Positions 12,987 to 63,273 of a DNA stretch of 64,000 nt are shown here, piece after piece (the stretch's first letter is position 1; every line of letters starts with the position of its first letter). The translations under genes and the position numbers were made by a program. Origin of the DNA: an uncultured Acidobacteriaceae bacterium (GTDB lineage Bacteria > Acidobacteriota > Terriglobia > Terriglobales > Acidobacteriaceae); the NCBI GenBank assembly GCA_963731345.1, contig CAVSUN010000005.1, forward strand, positions 446,311 through 510,310, in the 5' to 3' direction. The notes beneath the pieces are model-generated. The model did not search any database. It saw only the letters and a program-made list of their open reading frames with translations, and had not been told where the DNA came from.

Positions 12987-13963
12987 GCGCCCGCCTTCAG
13001 GAGCTGGCGTTCGCGCAGCGTCGCCGTCAGCGAGCGGATGTTTATGTACTGCTTCCCGTGGTTGTAGGCGTCGGTGCGCATTGCCAGCTTGATGGCCTTC
13101 GCGATCATGCCCTGGCTCATATCGGGAGCTTCATGCGCGGCGACCTCGCGCGCTTCTTCTTCGGTCAAACCCGGCAGCACAACCTTGTCCACCAGGCGGT
13201 CGTTCCACTGGCCCAGGCGCGCCGACAGCCGGTTGAATTTGGTGAGCAGCGTGTGCATCCCACACAGTAAGAGCGAGAAATAAGGCGGCCGGTCGAGCAG
13301 GGCCCGAACAGTCTCCAGGCACGTAACCCAGTCGCTCTCGTTGGTTCCGAGGTTCTGCGTCTCGTCAAGGGCCAGCATCACGCGCCGGTTGCGGAAGTCC
13401 CAGGCCAGGTTGCGCCGGATGCGGCACTTGTCGCCGGCAGCCGAGGAGCCGCACGCAATGGCGATATCCTTCATCAGCTGCGTCGGCTTCATGTCCGGAA
13501 CGCAATAAACGTAGTAGGCGAGTCGGCCCTCGCCGTTGCGCGGCATCTCTTCGCGGTTCAGGCGCGCGATCTCATATTCCAGAGTGAATGACTTCTGTGA
13601 TCCCGGCGGACCGTAAACCATAAGAGCCGATGGGCGCTTAAGCAGCTTCTGAATCGAGCGCCGGATCAGCCGCGCGTTCTCGGTCTCGTAGAGCGCGCCC
13701 AGGACCTGTTGCGGCGGTTCGATGGGATGTTCGTGAATAAACTGTTCGATCGCTTGGCACAGCAAACGGTGCGTGCCAGCAATGTTGTTGTAGCGATCGC
13801 TGCTGAATTGCTGAAGTGTTTTCTCGGAGTAGTTGACGCGGCGGGCAAAATCTCCAAGCGTCAGGCCGCTGCGCGTCAGATAGTTTTTCATCAATGGCAT
13901 CACCCGCGCGCGGTCACCGGCTGTTTCGTATAGCTTCTTTTTGTGCTCTTGGCCCTGGGTCAT
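12983..13963 (-). CDS. MuB-like AAA+ transposition ATPase with N-terminal HTH
   Basis: ATG at 13963 overlaps the transposase stop (ATGA). N-terminal HTH LTLGDFARRVNYSEKTLQQFSSDRYNN, Walker A VYGPPGSQKS, Walker B VMLALDETQNL. Confidence 0.75.
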   Translation of the reverse strand: MTQGQEHKKKLYETAGDRARVMPLMKNYLTRSGLTLGDFARRVNYSEKTLQQFSSDRYNNIAGTHRLLCQAIEQFIHEHPIEPPQQVLGALYETENARLIRRSIQKLLKRPSALMVYGPPGSQKSFTLEYEIARLNREEMPRNGEGRLAYYVYCVPDMKPTQLMKDIAIACGSSAAGDKCRIRRNLAWDFRNRRVMLALDETQNLGTNESDWVTCLETVRALLDRPPYFSLLLCGMHTLLTKFNRLSARLGQWNDRLVDKVVLPGLTEEEAREVAAHEAPDMSQGMIAKAIKLAMRTDAYNHGKQYINIRSLTATLRERQLLKAGA

Positions 13964-16011
13964 TCTTCCTCCATCAGTATCAGTATCCGTGCAGACTCGG
14001 TCGGGCTCGGTGGCGCGACCGCCGTGTCGTCCGGGCGAGGCGCGAGCCTGTGCGTCATATGCTCGCCCACCGCGAACGGAAGCACGCGGGCCTTTTCGGC
14101 CAGAACCTCCAGCGTGGAGTGCATCCCGGTTTCTGCAGCCAGGCGCTTCACTTCTGAAATCTGGTCGAGCGTGCGGTTCTTCATCCGGCGGCGCTGTGCC
14201 ACCATCGACGAGACGGCTTCGCCGGACGTGGGCGACTGCCCCAGCTTTTCTTCCGGCTTCGCCCAGCACAGCAGCTTGCCGTAGAGATCCAACACCGCAA
14301 TCCCACTGGGGTCATTGCGGTCGTAGGCAATCACCACATCCTGCTCAGCCAGGTCGTGAAGCACGATGGCCGCGGCATCATCGGCCCCGATATAGCGGCG
14401 CCGTCCGAGATAGATGGCGCACTCATGCACCTTGCGCGGCTTTCGCTCGGCCAGCGACAAGGCCACCTCCGACAATGTCAGAGGTGGACGCTGCGCTGGA
14501 TTCATCTCTGCCGCGAAGACGTCGTTCGGCGTGCGGCCATCCATGCCCTCGCCGGAGTGCGGGGTGTTGTTGTACTGCTCAATCCATGCTGCACATAGCG
14601 CCATGAAGGCGGTTGCGGGCGCATGGTTTGAGTGCCGCAGGTACGATGGCCCCATGCGCAGCAGTTTGCGATGCCGTGCCATCTCGACCGAGGTCTCATC
14701 CGGGCGGAGTTCAGGCTTTCCGCCGGTGTAGGTCGGGAAGTGAACCTCGAACTGCTCCTTCATCGTCTTCCAGAGCCGTTCGATCGGCTTCGACTGGCCG
14801 TGGTAAGGCTGGCAGTACTGAACCTGAATGCCCAGGCGCGCCAGCAGCCCAAGCTCGGCTTCACAGAGTTCGCGTTGCTCGCCCTCTTCTTCGCGCGGAT
14901 TGGCTGGCTCAGCCCCGGCACCAATCTTGCGATACGCCTTGCCGTTGTCGACGTAGAAAATCTCGCACGGCCCGAATTGCAGCAGCGGTCCGCGCATGGC
15001 CGTCGCGATCGACACCGAACTCTCTACCGGGGAGAAAGACCAGCCGACGAGCTTGCGTGAGCGGAAACATTGGATGCCGGTAAAACGCAGGCGCAGCGGA
15101 GTGCCGAACTGCAGCTCAGGGAAGCAGTCGTTCCACACTTCCACATCGCAGATCTTGCCATCGGAGCACCAGATCTGGTTCGCGGCCACGTCGACATAAC
15201 TCCGCTTGACGAAGGGCGAGACGCGGTTTTCGTATTGCCGCAGCCCCTCGCGCGCCAAAATGCGCATTGCAGGGGTGATCTCGGAGGTCGACTTCAGCCA
15301 TTCCCGTATCGTCTTGTAATCCGGAAGATCCTCAGCCGGGATGCCAAAGATGTCGTGCTGCTCGATGAGCAAGCGGTGAATTGCCGCTACGCTAAGCTTC
15401 CGCTGGTCAAGGTAGAGGGATGCCGCAACGGCCTTGGCTTTCTGGTGTTTCTCGAAGAATCGGGACTTGCCTTTGTCGCTTCGCTGGCGATCAGCAAGCC
15501 CTACCAGCCCGCATTCCTGATATCTCTGCTGCCAGCGGAAAATCGTCGAGGGGTCTATCCCATGCTGCTTGGCAAGATGCGCTCGCAGCTTAGCGGCGCT
15601 TCCAAAAATGGACCCATCGGGAAGTCGCAGTTCGCTCCTTGGTACGATCGCGACCAATGGCTCGATGATGGCGAAGCGCTCGCGCGCCTGCACCTGTTCT
15701 GCTGCTGAGGCGAATGCGACTTTTGGCCGCTCGTTCGCGGTGCTCTGCTCGACGGCTGCTGTTGCCAAGGCGCGTTCGCGTTCCCGCCATTTCAGCTGGG
15801 CGGACCAAGGTAGAGAGGAGAGGCGATATTCCAAAACGGGCTTGCCGTTGCGAGAGCGTCGCCTGGTCGCACGCGCTTCCAGTTTTGGGGTCCTACTTTG
15901 TAGGACGCGAAGGCTCCAACCTGTTACTGAGAGCACATCATTGCGACTCAGCCACTGGTCAGCCTCGCTGCCCTTGGCCGCGATCGTACTGGCCGAGCGA
16001 ACGGTGCTCAT
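13960..16011 (-). CDS. MuA-like DDE transposase (rve integrase core)
   Basis: 683 aa. N-terminal DNA-binding region. DDE candidates in IWCSDGKICDV, FYVDNGKAYR and GQSKPIERLWKT. Followed by the ATPase gene, as in Mu A-B. Confidence 0.85.
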   Translation of the reverse strand: MSTVRSASTIAAKGSEADQWLSRNDVLSVTGWSLRVLQSRTPKLEARATRRRSRNGKPVLEYRLSSLPWSAQLKWRERERALATAAVEQSTANERPKVAFASAAEQVQARERFAIIEPLVAIVPRSELRLPDGSIFGSAAKLRAHLAKQHGIDPSTIFRWQQRYQECGLVGLADRQRSDKGKSRFFEKHQKAKAVAASLYLDQRKLSVAAIHRLLIEQHDIFGIPAEDLPDYKTIREWLKSTSEITPAMRILAREGLRQYENRVSPFVKRSYVDVAANQIWCSDGKICDVEVWNDCFPELQFGTPLRLRFTGIQCFRSRKLVGWSFSPVESSVSIATAMRGPLLQFGPCEIFYVDNGKAYRKIGAGAEPANPREEEGEQRELCEAELGLLARLGIQVQYCQPYHGQSKPIERLWKTMKEQFEVHFPTYTGGKPELRPDETSVEMARHRKLLRMGPSYLRHSNHAPATAFMALCAAWIEQYNNTPHSGEGMDGRTPNDVFAAEMNPAQRPPLTLSEVALSLAERKPRKVHECAIYLGRRRYIGADDAAAIVLHDLAEQDVVIAYDRNDPSGIAVLDLYGKLLCWAKPEEKLGQSPTSGEAVSSMVAQRRRMKNRTLDQISEVKRLAAETGMHSTLEVLAEKARVLPFAVGEHMTHRLAPRPDDTAVAPPSPTESARILILMEEE

Positions 16012-53534: not shown

Positions 53535-53584
53535 TGGTCGGGACGGGCAGATTTGAACTGCCGACCCCTCGCACCCCAAGCGAG
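53535..53584 (-). other. 3' fragment of tRNA-Pro(GGG): att-like island junction, not a functional tRNA
   Basis: Minus strand reads ctcgc-ttggggt-gcgag-gggtc-ggcag-ttcaaat-ctgcc-cgtcccg-a-cca (anticodon arm to CCA). The upstream 26 nt lack the acceptor partner cgggacg and a D arm. Confidence 0.7.
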
Positions 53585-53757: not shown

Positions 53758-54711
53758 TTAATGGGCTTCCTTGCCGCGCGGGGGGGCGTCTACAGCCTGT
53801 TTTTGACGCCCTAGTCGGTCGCTAAGTGATAGCGCCGTGTCTATTGCGTGGAGGACCCGGATTGCTTCTGCCCGCACATTCGGAGCCTCGAAACGGCCAT
53901 GTTGTATGCCGTGCCGAGAAAGCACCGGAGCGACATTCGGCGAAATGGCCGGAACTTGAACGTAAAGCTCGCTGACAAACGTGGCCAGTGAGAGCCACAT
54001 AGCAGCCGCGAACATCTGGCGCTTTGCATCTCTCGCGACACGGCCTCCTGCCTGAAGTGCCTTCTTTACGTCACGAGAAAGCAAGTTTGGCGGATTTAGT
54101 CGCAGTATGACATTTTCCAGAACCGCAATCAGCTGCGGAATTGCTATCGAGTAGTCTCCACGTCGTATGGAATTGAAGCATTGTGGCAGGACCGTCCGAA
54201 AAGCTTCTGTGGCAACGTGCCCACATATTCGCCTCTCCATCCTTTCCAAGCTGGCGTCGTTTTCGTCATACCATTGCAAGACGTATGAATCAGCATCTTC
54301 TCTCGTCTCAAGCTGCGCCAGTTCAACAAGGTCGCTGAAGTAAAAATGACACGGAAATGTCCAGCCCAGCTTTGCTATATGGTCCGTTCGCTCAAGCGTG
54401 GCTGATACCTGCTTCGATGCATCTGCCACCAGGTTCCCGAACTGCACGCCCAAATGAACAGCATTTGCGATACCTGCTTGGAACGCTCGTATCTCCTCAC
54501 GGTTTACTTCAACCCACGAAACGAAATTCTTTTGGACTTCGCGCAACTGCTGCACAAGCTCCACGTATGGTCCAGCAATCGTTGCGACGGCTTTAGAAAT
54601 CTCCGTCTGGGCTTGGTTGAACTGTCGCACGGTTTCGAGTGTTTCTTTTCTCAAATCCTCGACAATCCTCGCGGTTTGCCCGTCGAGCGCCTTCGAGTGG
54701 TCGTCCGGCAC
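53758..54711 (-). CDS. hypothetical protein with C-terminal HEPN-like Rx4H motif
   Basis: 317 aa, helical. SRHGIQHG (R266..H271, nt 53899-53916) fits the HEPN Rx4-6H signature. No other recognisable domain. Confidence 0.45.
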   Translation of the reverse strand: MPDDHSKALDGQTARIVEDLRKETLETVRQFNQAQTEISKAVATIAGPYVELVQQLREVQKNFVSWVEVNREEIRAFQAGIANAVHLGVQFGNLVADASKQVSATLERTDHIAKLGWTFPCHFYFSDLVELAQLETREDADSYVLQWYDENDASLERMERRICGHVATEAFRTVLPQCFNSIRRGDYSIAIPQLIAVLENVILRLNPPNLLSRDVKKALQAGGRVARDAKRQMFAAAMWLSLATFVSELYVQVPAISPNVAPVLSRHGIQHGRFEAPNVRAEAIRVLHAIDTALSLSDRLGRQKQAVDAPPRGKEAH

Positions 54712-54932: not shown

Positions 54933-55688
54933 ATGTCTCAGAAGTCTAAAATCGAGTGGACAGATGCAACGTGGAATCCGGTGCGCGGCTGTACGAAGGT
55001 CAGCCCCGGTTGCAAGCACTGCTATGCGGAAGTGTTCGCGGAGCGTTTTCGAGGAGTTCCGAAGCACCCTTACGAACAGGGTTTTGATTTGCGTTTGGTG
55101 CCTGAGAAACTGCAAGAGCCGCTGAAGTGGAGGATGTCGCGCCTCATATTTGTGAACTCGATGAGTGACCTTTTCCAGGACGGAATACCGGACGACTACG
55201 TGGTTCAAGTTGCGGAGGTCATGAATAGCGCCTCTTGGCATACCTTTCAAGTACTTACCAAAAGGGCGGACCGAATGCGGAGCCTGCTCAATTCAAAGCT
55301 CAGATTTGCCGCACAATCTCCGCATATCTGGTGGGGTGTGAGCGTCGAAAATCGCAAGTATGGTTTGCCCCGTATTGCAGAACTGCGAGCAGCTAAGACC
55401 GCGATGCGTTTCTTGTCTGTCGAGCCCTTGCTTGAGGACGTCGGGACGATAGACCTATCGGGTATTCACTGGGTCATCGTAGGGGGCGAGAGCGGTCCCG
55501 GAGCGCGGCCAATGGAGAAAGAGTGGGTTCTGTCCATTCGGAATCAATGCCGGAAGGCGCGAGTCCCGTTCTTTTTCAAGCAGTGGGGAGGCGTTCACAA
55601 AGCCAAGAACGGTCGGATACTCGAAGGTCGAACTTATGACCAGATGCCTACTTTGGGAGTAGCTGTCGCTGGCCACCGTGGAACTTGA
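54933..55688 (+). CDS. DUF5131 (phage Gp37/Gp68) three-Cys-motif protein
   Basis: MSQKSKIEWTDATWNPVRGCTKVSPGCKHCYAE.. and WVIVGGESGPGARPMEKEWV..C....VPFFFKQWGG are hallmarks of the Gp37/Gp68 family. Confidence 0.8.
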   Translation: MSQKSKIEWTDATWNPVRGCTKVSPGCKHCYAEVFAERFRGVPKHPYEQGFDLRLVPEKLQEPLKWRMSRLIFVNSMSDLFQDGIPDDYVVQVAEVMNSASWHTFQVLTKRADRMRSLLNSKLRFAAQSPHIWWGVSVENRKYGLPRIAELRAAKTAMRFLSVEPLLEDVGTIDLSGIHWVIVGGESGPGARPMEKEWVLSIRNQCRKARVPFFFKQWGGVHKAKNGRILEGRTYDQMPTLGVAVAGHRGT

Positions 55689-56796
55689 CGATGGTTCCAT
55701 CAGGGTATGTGCCACGCCTACGCCCCGTCTTCGCACTCACTACGCTCATCGCCCCTTCTTTCTCCATTGGCGCAAGTATTGGCTTTTTAAGGTGTGTTCG
55801 CAAGAACGGAGTGTTTGCGACGACCCAGTCTCCAAGCGCTTCAATCTCTATCTCGATGTTAGCAAATTTGTCTGTGATTATTTCCCGCAGCCAGTCGTAG
55901 TCCGGTGCAGCCTCAAAAAGCGGAATCTGCTTTTTCGAATTAGTGAAATCCGAAAAGGAAAATTCTCCAGCAGGGTCCACCTTCCACATCGCATGCTTCA
56001 TGACGTCAAGACCTTTTAAGCTATTCGTCGCGAAAAACAGAAAGTAGTCAGCCGAATTGCTCTTATTCACCATCTCGAAGGAGCGCACGTACTCACCAAC
56101 AGTTTGGAGTTGTTCCAAATAGAGGTCGTGAATATACGCTAAACGCTCGGCAGGGTCGCAGATACCAATCGCGCCGCGCCATTCGCGAGTGCCAAACTGA
56201 GCATCGAAGTGACCCGCGAAATCGGGATTTGAGAGAAAACGGTTTATCTCCTCGTACATGAAGTTGATTAGAATTTCGGTCTTTGGACTCCCCATCAATT
56301 GCGCCACTGTGTTGAATGGGGTATGCGAGAAGCCAAAGGGGTCGAGGAAAGAGAGTGTTGGTGCGTCTCGTTTTCTCTGCTCTTCAACTTCTGCAAACAC
56401 CTCGTTGACGTGGTCATTAAACTTTCCGTGCAGGTGACGATATTTGATGTTCTTGGGGAGAGTTGGCTTTATGTTGGCTAAGACCTGGACTAGGTGTTCG
56501 TAGCGGCCTCGGTCGTCTTCAATGAACAAACAGATGAGCTCAGCGTTAAACTTCTGAACGTGGTCTCTCGCGGCTTTGAGCACCACGACAGGCGAGCCAT
56601 CTTCGCCCTTGCTATATTCGCCAGGTCCAGCGAAAGCATCAATGTATAGCAGTCGCTGATTGGAGTTCGCTAGTATCGGTAGCCACCCTTGAAAGTGGCG
56701 ACGCAAAATCTCATGTTTTTTCGCTGTGTGCGGTTCAAGGTCCCACACCGTCTCTAAAACCCTGCTCATATCGGTGCTCCTACGATGTGATACCAC
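55648..56796 (-). CDS. tcmP: three-Cys-motif partner protein TcmP
   Basis: WDLEPHTAKKHEILRRHFQGWLPIL..LLYIDAFAGPGEY..GSPVV matches the TcmP N-terminal signature. Start is GTG 56796 or ATG 56769. Confidence 0.72.
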   Translation of the reverse strand: MVSHRRSTDMSRVLETVWDLEPHTAKKHEILRRHFQGWLPILANSNQRLLYIDAFAGPGEYSKGEDGSPVVVLKAARDHVQKFNAELICLFIEDDRGRYEHLVQVLANIKPTLPKNIKYRHLHGKFNDHVNEVFAEVEEQRKRDAPTLSFLDPFGFSHTPFNTVAQLMGSPKTEILINFMYEEINRFLSNPDFAGHFDAQFGTREWRGAIGICDPAERLAYIHDLYLEQLQTVGEYVRSFEMVNKSNSADYFLFFATNSLKGLDVMKHAMWKVDPAGEFSFSDFTNSKKQIPLFEAAPDYDWLREIITDKFANIEIEIEALGDWVVANTPFLRTHLKKPILAPMEKEGAMSVVSAKTGRRRGTYPDGTIVKFHGGQRQLLPK

Positions 56797-57028: not shown

Positions 57029-57952
57029 CTATTCCTCGAAGTAGCTCGAATCTAGTTTTGGTACGTGGAGCGGACGAAGGGTGACACCAATTCCGTGCTC
57101 GACCATCAATTCGGCGAGCTTAATACCGTTAAGAAGGACGATTCGCTCGACTGACTTTGCAAACTCTGTTGCCTGTGGCGTGAAGTTCGATGTCGTGATG
57201 AACACGCCCTTGGTTGCTTTCTGCCCGGCAAGCGCGCCGTAAAACGCTTGAACTTCCGGGCGTCCAACGACACTTTGCCACCGCTTAGCTTGAACGTATA
57301 CCTTTTCCAAGCCGAGACGGTCCAGGGAAATGACGCCATCTATTCCTGCGTCGCCGGGGCCGCCAATCCTTGCCAAATCCTCTTCACTTCTGCCGTACCC
57401 AATTTTGTAAAGAACGTCGAGGACAATATCCTCAAAATGTTCCGGCGAGACTTTAGAAAGCGTTTCAACAAGCTCTGCGGTGACGCTTTGTCGCAGTTCG
57501 GCGAGCGCCTGCTCAAGCCGGTCATCCGGGCTCACTTTAGCTGTATCAGGTGGAGCTGGAGTAGTAAGGGTGGCGGTCACAGATTCTTGAGAGTCAGATG
57601 CCGCACTAAGACGGACGTCAGTGTTCTCGGTAGCAAGCTTTTCCACCGTTTCCGGCGATAAGGGGGTAGGATGACTGCTCGCGAAGGTACGGCCTTGTTC
57701 GGTCAATTGCCAATATCCGAATTTGGGGCTTTGCGAGAATCCCGCGCGCTTGAGGCGGTCATGCGCCCAACCCGCACGATTCTTGTAAACCCGCTGAGCG
57801 CCGCTCGGGAGTATTTCGGAACGGTCGGCATCGCTCAGATGCAATGCGTCGGCTGCGGCGTTATGTACCTCGGCTGCGGCGGCTCCGTCGGGGTGCTCAG
57901 CTAAGTACCGCAGTACGGGCTCAATGAATTTGTCGTATGTCGGAACAGGCAA
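57029..57952 (-). CDS. mrr: Mrr-type (type IV) restriction endonuclease
   Basis: TTG at 57952 after GGAGG gives (M)PVPTYDKFIEPVLRYLAEHPDG (Mrr_N winged helix). C-terminal FEDIVLDVLYKIGYG..GDAGIDGVI..VYVQAKRWQ..VGRPEVQAFYGAL..KGVFITTSNFT is Mrr_cat. Confidence 0.8.
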   Translation of the reverse strand: MPVPTYDKFIEPVLRYLAEHPDGAAAAEVHNAAADALHLSDADRSEILPSGAQRVYKNRAGWAHDRLKRAGFSQSPKFGYWQLTEQGRTFASSHPTPLSPETVEKLATENTDVRLSAASDSQESVTATLTTPAPPDTAKVSPDDRLEQALAELRQSVTAELVETLSKVSPEHFEDIVLDVLYKIGYGRSEEDLARIGGPGDAGIDGVISLDRLGLEKVYVQAKRWQSVVGRPEVQAFYGALAGQKATKGVFITTSNFTPQATEFAKSVERIVLLNGIKLAELMVEHGIGVTLRPLHVPKLDSSYFEE

Positions 57953-58218
57953 TTGAACCTCCGGGCCGCGCGTGTTTCGCCGTGGCTTGGGGCATCGCCC
58001 CGATTGTACCGTGATGGCGCAAATGCAATTAAGCGACGCGCCGGTTCCCGGGCACGTCGGCTCTTGAGCCTGCTTTTCTCTAGCTGTCGCCTTCTCCGCA
58101 CCCCCCGCGCGGAGGGGGCGGACGGGGTACGTGCTACGATGATGCGATTCCATAGCCTCAGCAATAGCGGACTGACGCCCCGTTTTCCGCGTGGAAACCT
58201 TGTTGCGGATTCGCACCC

Positions 58219-61200
58219 ATGCGCGCGCCAACCCAGCAAACGACAGCCGACCCGGTTCCTAGTGATCCGAAGAAAATCTGCACGTGGTTCGCGGAGGCCG
58301 TCCGGCACGAAATCGAAGAACTTACAAAAACTGGAAAACAAGCGCAATACGAGGTTCACTCGGGCAGCTTTCAGCAGTTGGCAGCAAACGGCGATGCAGT
58401 CTTTCGTTTCCGTCTTGCAGACGGCACCCTCATCCCGGAAGATTCTTCGGGCTACCTACACATTGGGGAGTCCAAATATCGTGCAACGGTAATCAGTCAG
58501 CAGGAAATTGTCATTTTCATCCAAGTCGTTGGTCTGAATGCGCCCAATGTACCTAGGGCGCTGTTGGCGATTGATGACACTGCTCTACTGGAAAGGCTTG
58601 CTGAACAACTGGAAAACGTCGCTGCAAGCATCGGCGTAGGGCCAATAGCAGTGTCTGCCTTTCACCCAAGCAACGCGATAGTGAACAAGGACTCAACGGT
58701 CGATTTAAGCGCGTCACCGCTTAGTGACGAACAGCGCCAGGTCTTGCGGCAGGCTCTAGGTTCAACTGTTACCTACGTATGGGGGCCGCCGGGCACCGGA
58801 AAGACACACCTAATTGCTCATCTAATCGCTGCCCTCCTGTCCAGCAAACAGCGAGTGCTACTCACTAGCCATACGCACGTGGCAGTAGACCAAGCGCTCT
58901 ACGAGACGGTGAAATATGAAAATACCCACGCTCAGTATGCTTCGTCTGATGGTCCCGTCGAGTTTATGCGGCACACCTCTTGCCCAAACTGCGGGTTCTC
59001 TTGGAACGAACACCCCCAGAGTGGCGAGTGCCCCTTGCACTCAGAGTTGAACCAAACACGCTCAAGGTCGAAAGGGCCACTCGCAAATGACCCGCTCATT
59101 GCGGAAGGGAAAATTCTGCGTCTTGGCAGAACACAGGACCCAAAGGTCGGAACGGACTTCAGGTTCGAGGATGTCGTGGCGCGACGGTCAGGGCAGATTA
59201 GCGGTGATCTCGCGAAAGCGCAACACGAACTGCAGCACCTCACAGCGGACCGCGATTCGCTTACCGACCAACTTCGTGAGTGGGACCAATTGGACGCCCT
59301 GAAGCGTCAATTGGAACAGACAGACGTAAGCGCGAGAGAAGCCCGTGGCCGACTGTCACGCGCGGAGAGTGAGCTCAAAGCCCGGCAGCAGAGTGTGTCG
59401 CGCTGCGAAATTGATTTGGGTAGCCTGCAAGCTGCGTGGTTCTTTCGTGAGGTCCGGGAGCGAAACACAAGACGAAGGCTGGAGCGCTGTGAGACTGATT
59501 TTGAAAAGGCAAGACAAGAATATGCGCTTGCTTTTGACGCTGTCCAACAGGCTGAACAAACGTATGAACATGCAAGCAGGGCTGTGCAGCTTCAAGAGGG
59601 CTGTTGCGCAGGTTTGAGGCAGCGGACCGAAATCACTGCTAGGCTTTCGACTCTCAATCCTCGAATCGCTGATGTGGAAACCTCGATTCAGAAGCTAGAG
59701 CTGGACATTGCGAGCCTGGCCAAAGCAGTGCTATCCGACGCTGTAGCTGTGTTCTGTACCCTCACGAAGAACTACATTGGCAGGGAACTAGACGCCGAGT
59801 CTTTCGACGCTGTCATTGTGGACGAGATATCAATGGCACTCCCTCCTCTGGTGCTATTGGCGGCTGCACGGGCCACATCGCGACTCATTCTAGTGGGCGA
59901 CTTCCATCAGCTCCCTCCAATCGTTCGCAGCGATTCTGAGATTAGTAGCGTCCGACTGCGCCAGGACATTTTTCACCTAGCGGGAGTTGTTGCAGGTAAT
60001 AGTCGCATAACCTCCGAGTCGCCCGTGCTCGCGCGTCTGTCCACCCAAAGAAGGATGGTTCCGGAAATTGCGGATGTTGCAAGGCACCTTGTATATTCTT
60101 CACACCTCAAAGACCATGACGCCGTTTTCGATCGGGAATGTCCCGGGTGGCTGAGCTTCTTGCCGGATTCTCCGCTCGTTGTCGTAGACACTGCGGACCT
60201 TCACTGCTGGAGCGGCAAACAACCAGGCAGCCTCAGCCGTTTCAACTTCTATTCCGCGCAGCTAGCCACAGAGCTGGCGAGTATGGCCGCCGCGGACTGC
60301 CCAAAGCCCGCCGAAGGAGAGCCGCCTGAAATCGGCATCGTCACACCTTATGCCGCTCAGCGTCGCTTGTTGAATAGACATCTGATGGCAATGCAACTGG
60401 AGTCTTGGGTTGCGGCGGGGACCGTGCATACCTTCCAGGGAAAGGAGGCGAAATTCATAATCTTCGATTCAGTGTTGGATGAGCCTTACTATTCAGCTCG
60501 GCTGTGCGACCCCCGCAACCTTGGTGAGATTTTAAGAGAGCTAAATGTCGCCGTAACCCGCTCTAAGTTCAAGTTTGCCTTTATCGGGTCGTCCGAATGG
60601 CTAAACAAACACGCCTCGCCTGCAAGTGCTTTAGGCAAACTATGGATGTATCTCCAAAATAATGCCGAGTTTGTGCCCGCAGCCGACTTGGTAGAGTCGG
60701 GTTTCGGGCAGCGGGTGCTGGAACGCGATTCATCCGAGACATGGCAGTTGCCTCTTTCCCGCGACAACGACCGCGTACATCAAGTCCTTGATGAGAATAC
60801 GTTTTTCGAGTATTTCTTATGCGACCTAAGGACATGCTCTCAAAACATCTTCGGTTTAGTACCTTACTTTGGCGAATATCGCTGGCCGCGCATTGAGCCT
60901 AGCCTTAGTGCGGCGCTCGAACGCAGCGTCGAGGTGACGCTGGTCACACCGCCTTTAGCAGAGGCCGCGAACAGGGCATATGTCGAAGCGGCGATTCGGC
61001 ATCTTCGCGAGTTAGGTGCAGTCGTAATCTGTGCCTCTGGATTGCACGGCAAAGACATCATCATAGATGAACGCATCTGTTACACGGGAAGTTTGAATTG
61101 GGCGAGCCATCGCGGACGGCTCGAAATCATGCACCGGACGGTTAATGAGCAACTCGCTGCTCTCATGCTCAAGTATTTGCAAGCTCGTTTTATTCGAGAA

Positions 61201-61509
61201 GCTGCGGTTTTCGAGGATGGCACCGCGCGGCTTTGTCCCTTCTGTCACAAGGCAACGCAAGTTGTGAATCAGCGCCGACAACATGGTCCTTGGGATTTTC
61301 AAGCTATGAAGGTCGGATGCTCCAATCCAGAATGCCAACAATATCTTCGGTCAATAGACGAACGCCCGCCTTTCAGAGTAACTCCAACTTGCGCCCAGGA
61401 CGGACAAACTAAGCTGCGAAGAGTACGCCGGGGCCGAGGGGAAGCATGGGAATGCCCCAAACACCCAAGAGCTGAGCGCGAAAAAGTTGTACCCGGCGAC
61501 CCGCCTTGA
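58219..61509 (+). CDS. SF1 (DNA2/Upf1-like, AAA_11/AAA_12) helicase fused to an HKD PLD-family nuclease domain and C-terminal zinc ribbons
   Basis: Walker A GPPGTGKT (58783-58806), DEISMA, LILVGDFHQLPP, STQRRM, IVTPYAAQ, VHTFQGKEA, NVAVTRSK. CCCH knuckle CPNC..CPLH (58981-59040). Coiled-coil insert. HKD LHGKDIIID..GSLNW (61045-61068 onward). CPFC/CSNPEC/C..CPKH (61234-61470). Confidence 0.85.
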   Translation: MRAPTQQTTADPVPSDPKKICTWFAEAVRHEIEELTKTGKQAQYEVHSGSFQQLAANGDAVFRFRLADGTLIPEDSSGYLHIGESKYRATVISQQEIVIFIQVVGLNAPNVPRALLAIDDTALLERLAEQLENVAASIGVGPIAVSAFHPSNAIVNKDSTVDLSASPLSDEQRQVLRQALGSTVTYVWGPPGTGKTHLIAHLIAALLSSKQRVLLTSHTHVAVDQALYETVKYENTHAQYASSDGPVEFMRHTSCPNCGFSWNEHPQSGECPLHSELNQTRSRSKGPLANDPLIAEGKILRLGRTQDPKVGTDFRFEDVVARRSGQISGDLAKAQHELQHLTADRDSLTDQLREWDQLDALKRQLEQTDVSAREARGRLSRAESELKARQQSVSRCEIDLGSLQAAWFFREVRERNTRRRLERCETDFEKARQEYALAFDAVQQAEQTYEHASRAVQLQEGCCAGLRQRTEITARLSTLNPRIADVETSIQKLELDIASLAKAVLSDAVAVFCTLTKNYIGRELDAESFDAVIVDEISMALPPLVLLAAARATSRLILVGDFHQLPPIVRSDSEISSVRLRQDIFHLAGVVAGNSRITSESPVLARLSTQRRMVPEIADVARHLVYSSHLKDHDAVFDRECPGWLSFLPDSPLVVVDTADLHCWSGKQPGSLSRFNFYSAQLATELASMAAADCPKPAEGEPPEIGIVTPYAAQRRLLNRHLMAMQLESWVAAGTVHTFQGKEAKFIIFDSVLDEPYYSARLCDPRNLGEILRELNVAVTRSKFKFAFIGSSEWLNKHASPASALGKLWMYLQNNAEFVPAADLVESGFGQRVLERDSSETWQLPLSRDNDRVHQVLDENTFFEYFLCDLRTCSQNIFGLVPYFGEYRWPRIEPSLSAALERSVEVTLVTPPLAEAANRAYVEAAIRHLRELGAVVICASGLHGKDIIIDERICYTGSLNWASHRGRLEIMHRTVNEQLAALMLKYLQARFIREAAVFEDGTARLCPFCHKATQVVNQRRQHGPWDFQAMKVGCSNPECQQYLRSIDERPPFRVTPTCAQDGQTKLRRVRRGRGEAWECPKHPRAEREKVVPGDPP

Positions 61510-61882: not shown

Positions 61883-62656
61883 TTAAGTTGCGTCCTTTTG
61901 CAGCCCAAACGATTCTGCGAGCTGCTGTACACGGTCGCGCTGCGCTGTTGTAAGCTGCTTCATTCGCTTCCCCGGATAAAGTTGCTTGAGCGCCCGCTGG
62001 TTCCTACGAAAGCGATAGACTTGGGCACCGCTCACGCATGTTCGGGAGCAATAGTCTTGGTCAATTCGAGTCTTAGCAAATAGCTTTCCGCAGCCGTCCC
62101 TTGCTTCGGGGCAGATGCCGACGTACATCCGCACAGGCGTAAATCGCTCACCGCCCTTAGCCTTGGCGAGGCTGGTTCTGACTGTCTTGTCCAGTAATCG
62201 AAGCAGCTTGAAAACTACAGCTTCCAACTTAGCTTCGCTGTGTTCGGTGGCGGATTGCCCTAGTCGGTCAGGAATTGTGCTGACGTATTCCACGCCTTCA
62301 GCCCGCGTGAATATCACTTTCACGTACTTCAACGAATGTTCTATTTCCCTGTTACCAGCAGCCGCCCGGAGAACGCGAGCGAATTCCTGTTGCGCCTGAT
62401 TGACTTCGATTCCTCGAAAGGAATCGTTCTTCCACGGATGCTCAGTCATCAAGGCATTGATCTGCTTTGCAACGGTGACACCCTCATAAGGCCGCAGGTT
62501 CCGTGCCCAAAGAAAGCAGGTCAATTCCAACTCTGCATTCAATTGGCTCTCTGGCGTCGAAATCTTTCGCTGCGAGAGATCGACGGTCCATGTCAGCCGG
62601 TCCAATGGTCTCGCGCCCACCCGCTTCATTGCTCCCAAGATCAAGGGCTCCTTCAT
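61883..62656 (-). CDS. hypothetical protein with C-terminal CGNR-like zinc finger
   Basis: CPEARDGCGKLFAKTRIDQDYCSRTCVSGAQVYRFRRNQ resembles the CGNR zinc-finger pattern. Confidence 0.45.
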   Translation of the reverse strand: MKEPLILGAMKRVGARPLDRLTWTVDLSQRKISTPESQLNAELELTCFLWARNLRPYEGVTVAKQINALMTEHPWKNDSFRGIEVNQAQQEFARVLRAAAGNREIEHSLKYVKVIFTRAEGVEYVSTIPDRLGQSATEHSEAKLEAVVFKLLRLLDKTVRTSLAKAKGGERFTPVRMYVGICPEARDGCGKLFAKTRIDQDYCSRTCVSGAQVYRFRRNQRALKQLYPGKRMKQLTTAQRDRVQQLAESFGLQKDAT

Positions 62657-62778: not shown

Positions 62779-63273
62779 ATGACTGACGCAATTGATGAGT
62801 TGGTAGCACGCTCAAAGGATTGTCCCGAATTGCGGGCATTCCATGACTTTCACCGGAAGCACCCGGAAGTCCTGGATTTCTTGGTAGAGGAAATCCGTCT
62901 GCGCATCTCCCACGGTTTCCGGGCGTTTGCGTTTCAATCGCTGTGGAGTTACGCACGTTGGAAACTTGAAGTGACGAAGGGACCAACTGACACATACAAG
63001 ATGAATGACCACCTCTGCCCCTTTTACTCCCGGGCAATCATCATCTTGCACCCGGAAGAGTTTAACGGCCTAGCCGAACTCCGTCCCGCGAAAGCGGACG
63101 AGATTTTCGACACTCGGATTGAGCCGGAGCAGGGCAAGCGCCCGAAGAATTACGCGCGGCGGCTGCAATGGGCGGACAGCACCGCGATTGAGGACGGATG
63201 GCGGCCTAGCACTCCGCACGTGGTCAATCAGTCCGTAAACCGCAAACCCGATATTCACGGAAAGGGAGAGTGA
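62779..63273 (+). CDS. hypothetical protein upstream of PrimPol
   Basis: 164-aa ORF directly preceding the PrimPol gene (5-nt gap). No motif recognised. Confidence 0.4.
   Translation: MTDAIDELVARSKDCPELRAFHDFHRKHPEVLDFLVEEIRLRISHGFRAFAFQSLWSYARWKLEVTKGPTDTYKMNDHLCPFYSRAIIILHPEEFNGLAELRPAKADEIFDTRIEPEQGKRPKNYARRLQWADSTAIEDGWRPSTPHVVNQSVNRKPDIHGKGE

Follow-up and report, generated by a model that had tools for sequence, protein, structure and literature searches.

Mokosh type II is defined by an N-terminal helicase with a phospholipase D (PLD) domain at the C-terminus (Millman et al., 10.1101/2022.05.11.491447), and mutations in Walker A and in the HKD motif abolish Mokosh defence (10.1101/2022.05.11.491447). 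The use of a helicase with a PLD protein in Mokosh parallels that of MOV10L1 with PLD6 in the piRNA pathway (10.1101/2022.12.12.520048). The type II protein, MkoC (the Escherichia coli YjhR family), is a single polypeptide in which a COG1112/Upf1-like superfamily 1 (SF1) helicase is followed by a C-terminal PLD domain with one HKD motif. Mokosh type I consists of two genes: MkoA, the helicase, carries an extra N-terminal domain of at least ~600 amino acids (aa), and the nuclease, MkoB, is separate. A 1096-aa protein of the helicase-then-PLD design is encoded in contig CAVSUN010000005.1, within a stretch of 64,000 nucleotides that is referred to here, as a whole, as the window; all coordinates are positions in it. 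Judged from its sequence, the protein is a remote relative of MkoC and is Mokosh-II-like in design; it is distinguished from MkoC by a zinc-ribbon tail, an N-terminal barrel and a long stalk. The features of its gene are as follows.

58219-61509, plus strand: the 1096-aa helicase-PLD-zinc-ribbon open reading frame (ORF), intact; supported by Pfam, PADLOC, homologues and an AlphaFold2 model.
58267-58656, plus strand: family-specific N-terminal domain (aa 17-146), modelled by AlphaFold2 as a helix (aa 17-37), a six-stranded beta-barrel (42-118) and short stalk helices (122-146).
58783-58806, plus strand: Walker A, GPPGTGKT (aa 189-196), invariant in 72 sequences.
58930-59088, plus strand: insertion (aa 238-290) specific to one lineage and carrying a putative CCHC zinc knuckle, from the alignment; poorly modelled by AlphaFold2.
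59164-59739, plus strand: three-helix antiparallel coiled-coil stalk within RecA1, ~190 aa (aa 316-507; long helices 316-404, 410-464 and 469-507), AlphaFold2 model.
59746-60618, plus strand: the rest of RecA1 (motifs II and III) and RecA2 (motifs V and VI), from Pfam, conservation and AlphaFold2; in the model, RecA1 comprises aa 170-231 and 510-600, RecA2 comprises aa 604-800, and a helical linker follows at 804-833.
60778-61206, plus strand: PLD nuclease domain with a single HKD motif (aa 854-996, a PLD fold in the AlphaFold2 model); Pfam PLDc_2 (E 1.6e-8), PDB profiles and Foldseek.
61216-61506, plus strand: C-terminal zinc-ribbon tail (aa 1000-1096, small beta-ribbons in the AlphaFold2 model), from cysteine conservation and the Pfam domains of relatives.

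The start of the ORF is concordant with the N-termini of its homologues in the alignment. Statements on residue conservation are based throughout on a homologue alignment of 72 sequences (A3). Pfam placed AAA_11 at aa 168-571, AAA_12 at 605-792 and PLDc_2 at 870-988, and the AlphaFold2 model, built with 72 homologues, reached a predicted local distance difference test (pLDDT) score of 89.2 and a predicted template modelling score of 0.82. In addition to Walker A, the helicase motifs DE (aa 535-536), GDFHQLPP (560-567), TVHTFQG (735-741) and NVAVTR (776-781) were read from the sequence, and all five are invariant or nearly so. The ATP-binding and catalytic residues K195, D535/E536, K945 and D950 are all present and are invariant. 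A profile search of the PDB matched the motor to UPF1 (E 1.4e-41) and also to DNA2, IGHMBP2, SETX/Sen1 and ZNFX1, and Foldseek, run with the whole model, retrieved SETX, IGHMBP2, Upf1 and Dna2 at E 1e-26 to 1e-28, with template modelling scores of 0.4-0.74 when normalised by target length. The motor belongs with the Upf1-like SF1B helicases, which have two RecA domains with an accessory barrel and stalk. It shares fold and motifs with UPF1, IGHMBP2, SETX/Sen1, DNA2 and ZNFX1, and its PLD domain resembles Zucchini/PLD6; unlike the eukaryotic Upf1-like helicases, the protein is bacterial, is fused to its nuclease and has other accessory domains, and identity to them is ~15-17%.

The nuclease domain carries one HKD motif per chain on a Nuc/Zucchini-like fold, as judged from Pfam and Foldseek. 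The motif, HxKx4D, lies at aa 943-950 (H943, K945, D950) and is followed by GSLNW at 957-961, together nucleotides 61045-61101; K945, D950, G957, S958 and N960 are invariant, and H943 is kept in at least 90% of sequences. The PDB profile search matched the nuclease part to PLD6/Zucchini (7.7e-8) and NucT (1e-4), and the C-terminal 252 aa, modelled separately, retrieved NucT, Nuc and Zucchini in Foldseek at ~2e-8. A first-pass annotation of this DNA had described SF1 Upf1/DNA2-like motifs in the large ORF and a fusion of the helicase to a PLD domain with a single HKD motif from nucleotide 61045. Pfam, PDB profiles and Foldseek concur on both the motor and the fusion, and the position and identity of the motif were upheld.

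That annotation had also named Mokosh as the closest known system, which is borne out by the PADLOC models and by profile-profile alignment to MkoC. The only specific PADLOC matches of the 1096-aa protein were to Mokosh models; all PADLOC scores are reported here as model matches, without the native thresholds of DefenseFinder or PADLOC. The best score was that of the helicase core on MkoA (PDLC03920, E 3e-60, aa 149-814 against positions 595-1099 of 1112). The MkoC model (PDLC03924) gave 143.9 bits (E 1.4e-42), its best stretch covering positions 825-1103 of 1136, and the PLD domain matched MkoB weakly (8.6e-4). When the family (72 sequences) was aligned with five MkoC proteins by hhalign, aa 527-965 matched MkoC 686-1127 with a probability of 100% (E 9.8e-42), and the alignment spanned motif II, the linker between the domains and the HKD motif without a break. 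Because this alignment is continuous across the linker, the sequence comparison favours a single ancestral helicase-PLD fusion, common to MkoC and the window family. The possibility that an MkoA-like helicase had been joined to a PLD domain independently was considered and rejected, as the MkoC alignment is uninterrupted through the linker. Relative to type I, the additional N-terminal domain of MkoA is unmatched in the window protein, helicase and nuclease are joined in one protein rather than separate, and no MkoB-like gene was found near 58219-61509 in the ORF list or by PADLOC.

It could be supposed from these matches that this is simply a genuine Mokosh type II gene, annotated as such by existing tools and offering nothing new. 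The identical domain order, the PADLOC E-value on MkoC and the hhalign probability over aa 527-965 all speak for this. However, the MkoC match is partial: the window protein and seven relatives scored 124-149 bits over model positions ~790-1123 (RecA2 and PLD), and none of the eight obtained a full-length match to the profile, whereas two real MkoC proteins matched positions 1-1135, L164 with 1387 bits and L165 with 1373. On the MkoA model, through its helicase part, the family reaches about 200 bits (range ~170-210), more than on MkoC. Identity to MkoC by BLASTP is 22% (aa 530-963), and of the N-terminal ~525 aa only a short stretch around Walker A (aa 167-208, BLASTP) aligns to MkoC. In addition, MkoC, which lacks a zinc-ribbon tail, stops ~35 aa past its HKD motif, whereas the tail of the window protein is ~100 aa long. 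That the gene is a true MkoC is therefore improbable, and the suggestion of the first-pass annotation that it marks a distinct variant stands, on account of the MkoC model not being matched over its full length and of the tail, which MkoC lacks. The same annotation had regarded the C-terminal position of the PLD domain as unusual, but helicase-then-PLD is the standard Mokosh type II order and is also found in real MkoC. MkoC and the window family are further alike in lying on mobile DNA, in not needing a partner gene and in having a large insertion that separates Walker A from motif II. The MkoC references used were full-length, plasmid-borne proteins; the L170 locus is truncated, E. coli K-12 yjhR and two further E. 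coli loci are truncated pseudogenes, and a protein search seeded with YjhR for full-length MkoC returned only fragments of at most 588 aa.

The N-terminal half of the window protein, which apart from the Walker A stretch cannot be aligned to MkoC, is made up of a beta-barrel N-domain and the three-helix coiled coil. The N-terminal domain shows conservation across the family, with E31, G49, F64, L123 and L127 invariant, and had no match in a Pfam scan. The Foldseek alignments to Upf1, IGHMBP2, Dna2 and SETX are ~850 columns long, a span that is consistent with the modelled barrel being a 1B-like barrel. The stalk helices were modelled with pLDDT 83-93, except for one 10-residue block at 65, and the stretch matched tropomyosin, myosin and SMC in the PDB profile search. 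It is present in all family sequences aligned, its length being conserved and its sequence weakly so. The coiled coil of ~170 aa that had been noted within RecA1 is thus real, with AlphaFold2 giving ~190 aa in three helices. It had also been taken as a mark of a variant; however, in MkoC an insert of ~396 aa separates Walker A from motif II, against 340 aa in the window protein, so a big RecA1 insertion is not in itself distinguishing.

The second insertion in RecA1, of ~45 aa, is confined to the window protein and three relatives (P0003, L081 and L082). It had been read as a CCCH knuckle formed by C255, C258, C271 and H274. A Cys-rich insert is indeed present, but the residues conserved in the four carriers are C255, C258, H265 and C271, a CCHC pattern, and H274 is not conserved. 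The stretch was poorly modelled (pLDDT 37-55), and its occurrence in four sequences only means that the putative knuckle is not a trait of the family.

The C-terminal tail contains two putative zinc sites, C1006/C1009/C1034/C1039 and C1058/C1079/H1082, of which C1034, C1058 and C1079 are invariant. Three Cys clusters had been proposed for this region (61234-61470); the Cys-rich tail was confirmed, and it resolves into two putative sites instead of three. At least 90% of relatives keep an extra Cys in the second site (CPKHPKxC), which the window protein is without: at 61453-61473 (aa 1079-1085) the window protein reads CPKHPRA and P0003 reads CPKHPKK. From this comparison, one Cys ligand of the second putative site has been lost in the subclade of the window protein and P0003. 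Pfam did not find Zn_ribbon_Top1 (PF01396) in the window tail, and generic zinc-ribbon matches were weak (E at least 0.05). Three more distant relatives (P0075, P0077 and P0082; 24-28% identity) have two Pfam Zn_ribbon_Top1 domains at the position of the tail, with E-values down to 9e-23. In these proteins, as in the window protein, the order is helicase, coiled-coil-sized insertion, PLD domain and then a pair of C-terminal zinc ribbons, and C1034, C1058 and C1079 align throughout; unlike those of the window protein, their ribbons are detected by Pfam as topoisomerase-type.

A protein search listed 120 homologues, of which ~70 are full-length (1040-1100 aa, 41-62% identity, 98-100% coverage) and share its architecture. 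These come from metagenomes and metagenome-assembled genomes of several phyla and carry generic names only; none is a named member. When a profile of the PLD and zinc-ribbon module was searched against 1.84 billion representatives, 45 clusters (at 50% identity) were obtained at E <=1e-30 and 508 at E <=1e-10, many of them having the module at the C-terminus of proteins of ~950-1100 aa. The distribution of the 1096-aa protein family across phyla is patchy. In a scan of genome contigs with the full-length alignment, which relied on peptides generic to helicases, L001 was the only close member among the matches listed, and close relatives of the protein were not found in the plasmid and phage collections. 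Literature searches turned up no account of the helicase-PLD architecture with zinc ribbons, and none of the NCBIfam model "PLuB".

The gene stands next to, and diverges from, a gene for a modification-dependent-type restriction enzyme, Mrr:

57029-57952, minus strand: Mrr, a type IV restriction endonuclease of 307 aa; Pfam Mrr_N and Mrr_cat, PADLOC mREase_IV.
57953-58218, no strand: divergent intergenic spacer of 266 bp, from the sequence.

As listed, the Mrr ORF covers 57029-58231 (minus strand), and its realistic start is TTG at 57952, with GGAGG 5 nucleotides upstream on the minus strand. In the 307-aa product, Pfam found the winged-helix domain Mrr_N from residue 6 (1.5e-24) and the PD-(D/E)xK domain Mrr_cat (1.3e-36), and PADLOC mREase_IV matched residues 1-306 to model positions 1-315 of 317 (E 1.5e-112). 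The neighbour is thus a genuine Mrr with the start that had been proposed for it and a full-length mREase_IV match, and the 266-bp spacer between the divergent genes is as it had been described. A promoter scan of the spacer detected no sigma-70-like promoter.

The first-pass annotation had regarded the two genes as tightly paired, and it could be envisaged that they cooperate as a two-gene unit controlled from the divergent region they share; Mrr might, for instance, cleave modified DNA, leaving its ends open to degradation by the helicase-nuclease. In favour of such a unit, the genes are divergent and only 266 bp apart. Support also comes from E. coli, where co-occurrence of Mokosh II with type IV restriction was counted in 882 of 975 instances and their co-localisation is non-random (10.1101/2022.08.21.504612). 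Adjacency was examined in 81 related loci, comprising 80 metagenomic loci, selected by an alignment of the family-specific C-terminal PLD/zinc-ribbon region, and one genome locus. With the window Mrr as tblastn query, an Mrr-like neighbour was found in one of the 81 (L098), and it is a different protein, of 583 aa with a C-terminal Mrr_cat, whose gene shares its strand with that of the helicase. The relatives that share the knuckle, which are the closest homologues, have other neighbours: ParE, WGR and resolvase genes (P0003), a UvrD-like helicase with AbiEi/AbiEii (L081) or metabolic genes (L082). Clustering of flanking ORFs within 4 kb of all 81 loci yielded no family that recurs at more than three of them, and the three loci with one recurrent neighbour family are copies of one conjugative element. 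Among 146 neighbour ORFs from 55 loci searched with Pfam and PADLOC, no family had more than 2-3 members, CBASS and AbiE were scattered, and Mrr_cat was not among the recurrent Pfam families.

In E. coli, the type IV neighbour of yjhR in two genomes is a phosphorothioate-dependent enzyme, not Mrr. The adjacency of yjhR and the phosphorothioate enzyme may lie behind the published co-localisation of Mokosh II with type IV restriction in that species. At two E. coli loci (L162, 10285-10490; L163, 10824-11029) the yjhR remnant adjoins a pseudogene of a phosphorothioated-DNA-binding restriction endonuclease. A two-gene unit of Mrr and the helicase-PLD protein is very unlikely on this evidence, and as an obligate system it is largely refuted. 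Mrr is an independent neighbour that lies in the island by chance and not a partner, and the 1096-aa gene is a single-gene unit with no conserved partner.

The window is chromosomal (DnaE and GlgB are present), and its GlgB shares 82-84% identity with proteins of Candidatus Korobacteraceae/Terriglobales metagenome-assembled genomes. The guanine-plus-cytosine fraction falls from ~0.59 to 0.52-0.56 after 54 kb. The following features lie in this part of the window:

53535-53584, minus strand: fragment like the 3' half of a tRNA (T arm, acceptor strand, CCA), read by eye from the sequence.
53758-54711, minus strand: ORF of 317 aa.
54933-55688, plus strand: DUF5131 protein of the PADLOC candidate system PDC-M30.
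55648-56796, minus strand: TcmP (three-Cys-motif partner) protein of PDC-M30; NCBIfam tcm_partner.
61883-62656, minus strand: ORF of 257 aa.
62779-63273, plus strand: ORF of 164 aa.

ARAGORN and Rfam called no tRNA at 53535-53584. Two independent metagenome contigs of the island start at the fragment (L166 at 53583 and L168 at 53559), which coincides with the fall in guanine plus cytosine and is probably, as read from the sequence, the attachment (att) repeat at the left end of the island. The first of these contigs extends the island past the end of the window (L166 9696-13868, corresponding to ~63278-67450) with a 576-aa Prim-Pol/PriCT_1/AAA_25 protein, a 413-aa ORF without a family and a tyrosine integrase. 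The integrative island is about 14 kb; L166 ends 59 nucleotides past the integrase start, and the right end lies beyond. The DUF5131 and TcmP genes are convergent, overlap by 41 bp and were matched by PADLOC, DUF5131 at 5e-105 (PDC-M30B) and TcmP at 1.7e-67 (PDC-M30A). Together with Mrr and the helicase-PLD gene, they are cargo of one integrative island in a Terriglobales chromosome. The ORFs of 317, 257 and 164 aa had no significant family in Pfam, NCBIfam or PADLOC and are kept in each of the other three island contigs. A 683-aa ORF (13960-16011, minus strand), located in the window's chromosomal part, contains an IS481-family transposase domain (E 1.2e-14).

Relatives of the 1096-aa protein adjoin AbiE, ParE or CBASS genes, or ride the conjugative element. 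The latter (L122, L123 and L130; contigs Ga0116127_1000043 and Ga0116103_1000017) has relaxase-, VirD4- and VirB11-like ORFs, and two copies of it lie on one 175-kb contig. A third alternative is that the enzyme works for the mobile element or for the cell, either in Dna2-like replication, processing or repair or as a Nuc-like nuclease of plasmid competition. The presence of Dna2 among the closest solved helicases, Nuc of a Salmonella plasmid as a top PLD match, the relative inside the conjugative element and the island's own Prim-Pol all speak for such a role. Nevertheless, linkage to genes of replication or transfer was not conserved in the 81 loci, the island already encodes a replication protein in its Prim-Pol/AAA_25 gene, and the lack of a fixed chromosomal context, with the patchy distribution, is unlike that of housekeeping repair genes. 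A role in the service of the element or the cell is accordingly considered unlikely.

The evidence leans instead towards the 1096-aa protein being a self-contained, single-gene, nucleic-acid-targeting defence enzyme of Mokosh type II design. The domain identities, the catalytic motifs, the homology to the C-terminal half of MkoC, the island context and the lack of a conserved partner were shown by the sequence analysis, and the defence role, substrate, polarity and dimerisation are inferred. Its location in a mobile island with Mrr and PDC-M30, the AbiE, ParE or CBASS genes and the conjugative element next to relatives, the patchy distribution, the lack of a recurrent neighbour, the homology to Mokosh, the domains and fold, the intact motifs and the Zn_ribbon_Top1 domains of relatives were counted in favour of this reading. 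In the proposed mechanism, the Upf1-like SF1B motor would load on a single strand of the invader, which may be RNA or may be single-stranded DNA or replication intermediates. Loading would be aided by the N-terminal barrel and by the C-terminal Topo-I-type zinc ribbons, which would add grip on the strand. Translocation driven by ATP, presumably 5'->3', would then hand the strand to the Nuc/Zucchini-type PLD nuclease, which would act independently of metal. As each polypeptide has one HKD motif, two copies would be needed for a full PLD active site, and the enzyme is predicted to dimerise. The coiled-coil stalk is the best candidate to mediate or gate dimerisation, and cleavage would be licensed only once two molecules meet on the substrate.

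Several points weigh against a defence enzyme of this kind. The window protein scores 144 bits on the full-length MkoC model, against ~1380 for real MkoC, and since the match is partial, function is not simply transferable from MkoC. The mechanism of Mokosh itself is still described as uncharacterised (PMC13276650). Mokosh II has been reported to be monomeric in solution (10.1101/2025.07.10.664194), so constitutive dimerisation is not supported. The window tail is unrecognised as a zinc ribbon by Pfam, with its second site one ligand short. Many homologous loci have ordinary metabolic neighbours, so that an enrichment in defence islands is no more than suggestive. A further, rather unlikely possibility is that the family represents a separate, unnamed single-gene defence type with a mode of action other than that of MkoC, in which the topoisomerase-type ribbons would sense single-stranded DNA or replication intermediates and dimerisation on the target through the coiled coil would activate the half-site PLD domain; in this island it might also act downstream of cleavage by Mrr.

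Under the preferred reading, a Mokosh-II-like defence enzyme, no new principle is introduced: this is a further helicase-nuclease fusion of a familiar type. The helicase-PLD fusion design was known, and what is new here is an MkoC-divergent variant with a zinc-ribbon tail. The family is widespread in metagenomes, and because current models match it only partially, censuses of defence systems in soil and sediment probably undercount it. Mokosh is common and its mechanism is open (PMC13276650). The family is a divergent natural variant in which the half from motif II to the HKD motif is kept and the N-terminal half is replaced, with the addition of a zinc-ribbon tail that probably binds single-stranded DNA and of a long stalk. 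Comparison with MkoC may therefore give a handle on which parts of these proteins sense the invader and which execute cleavage.

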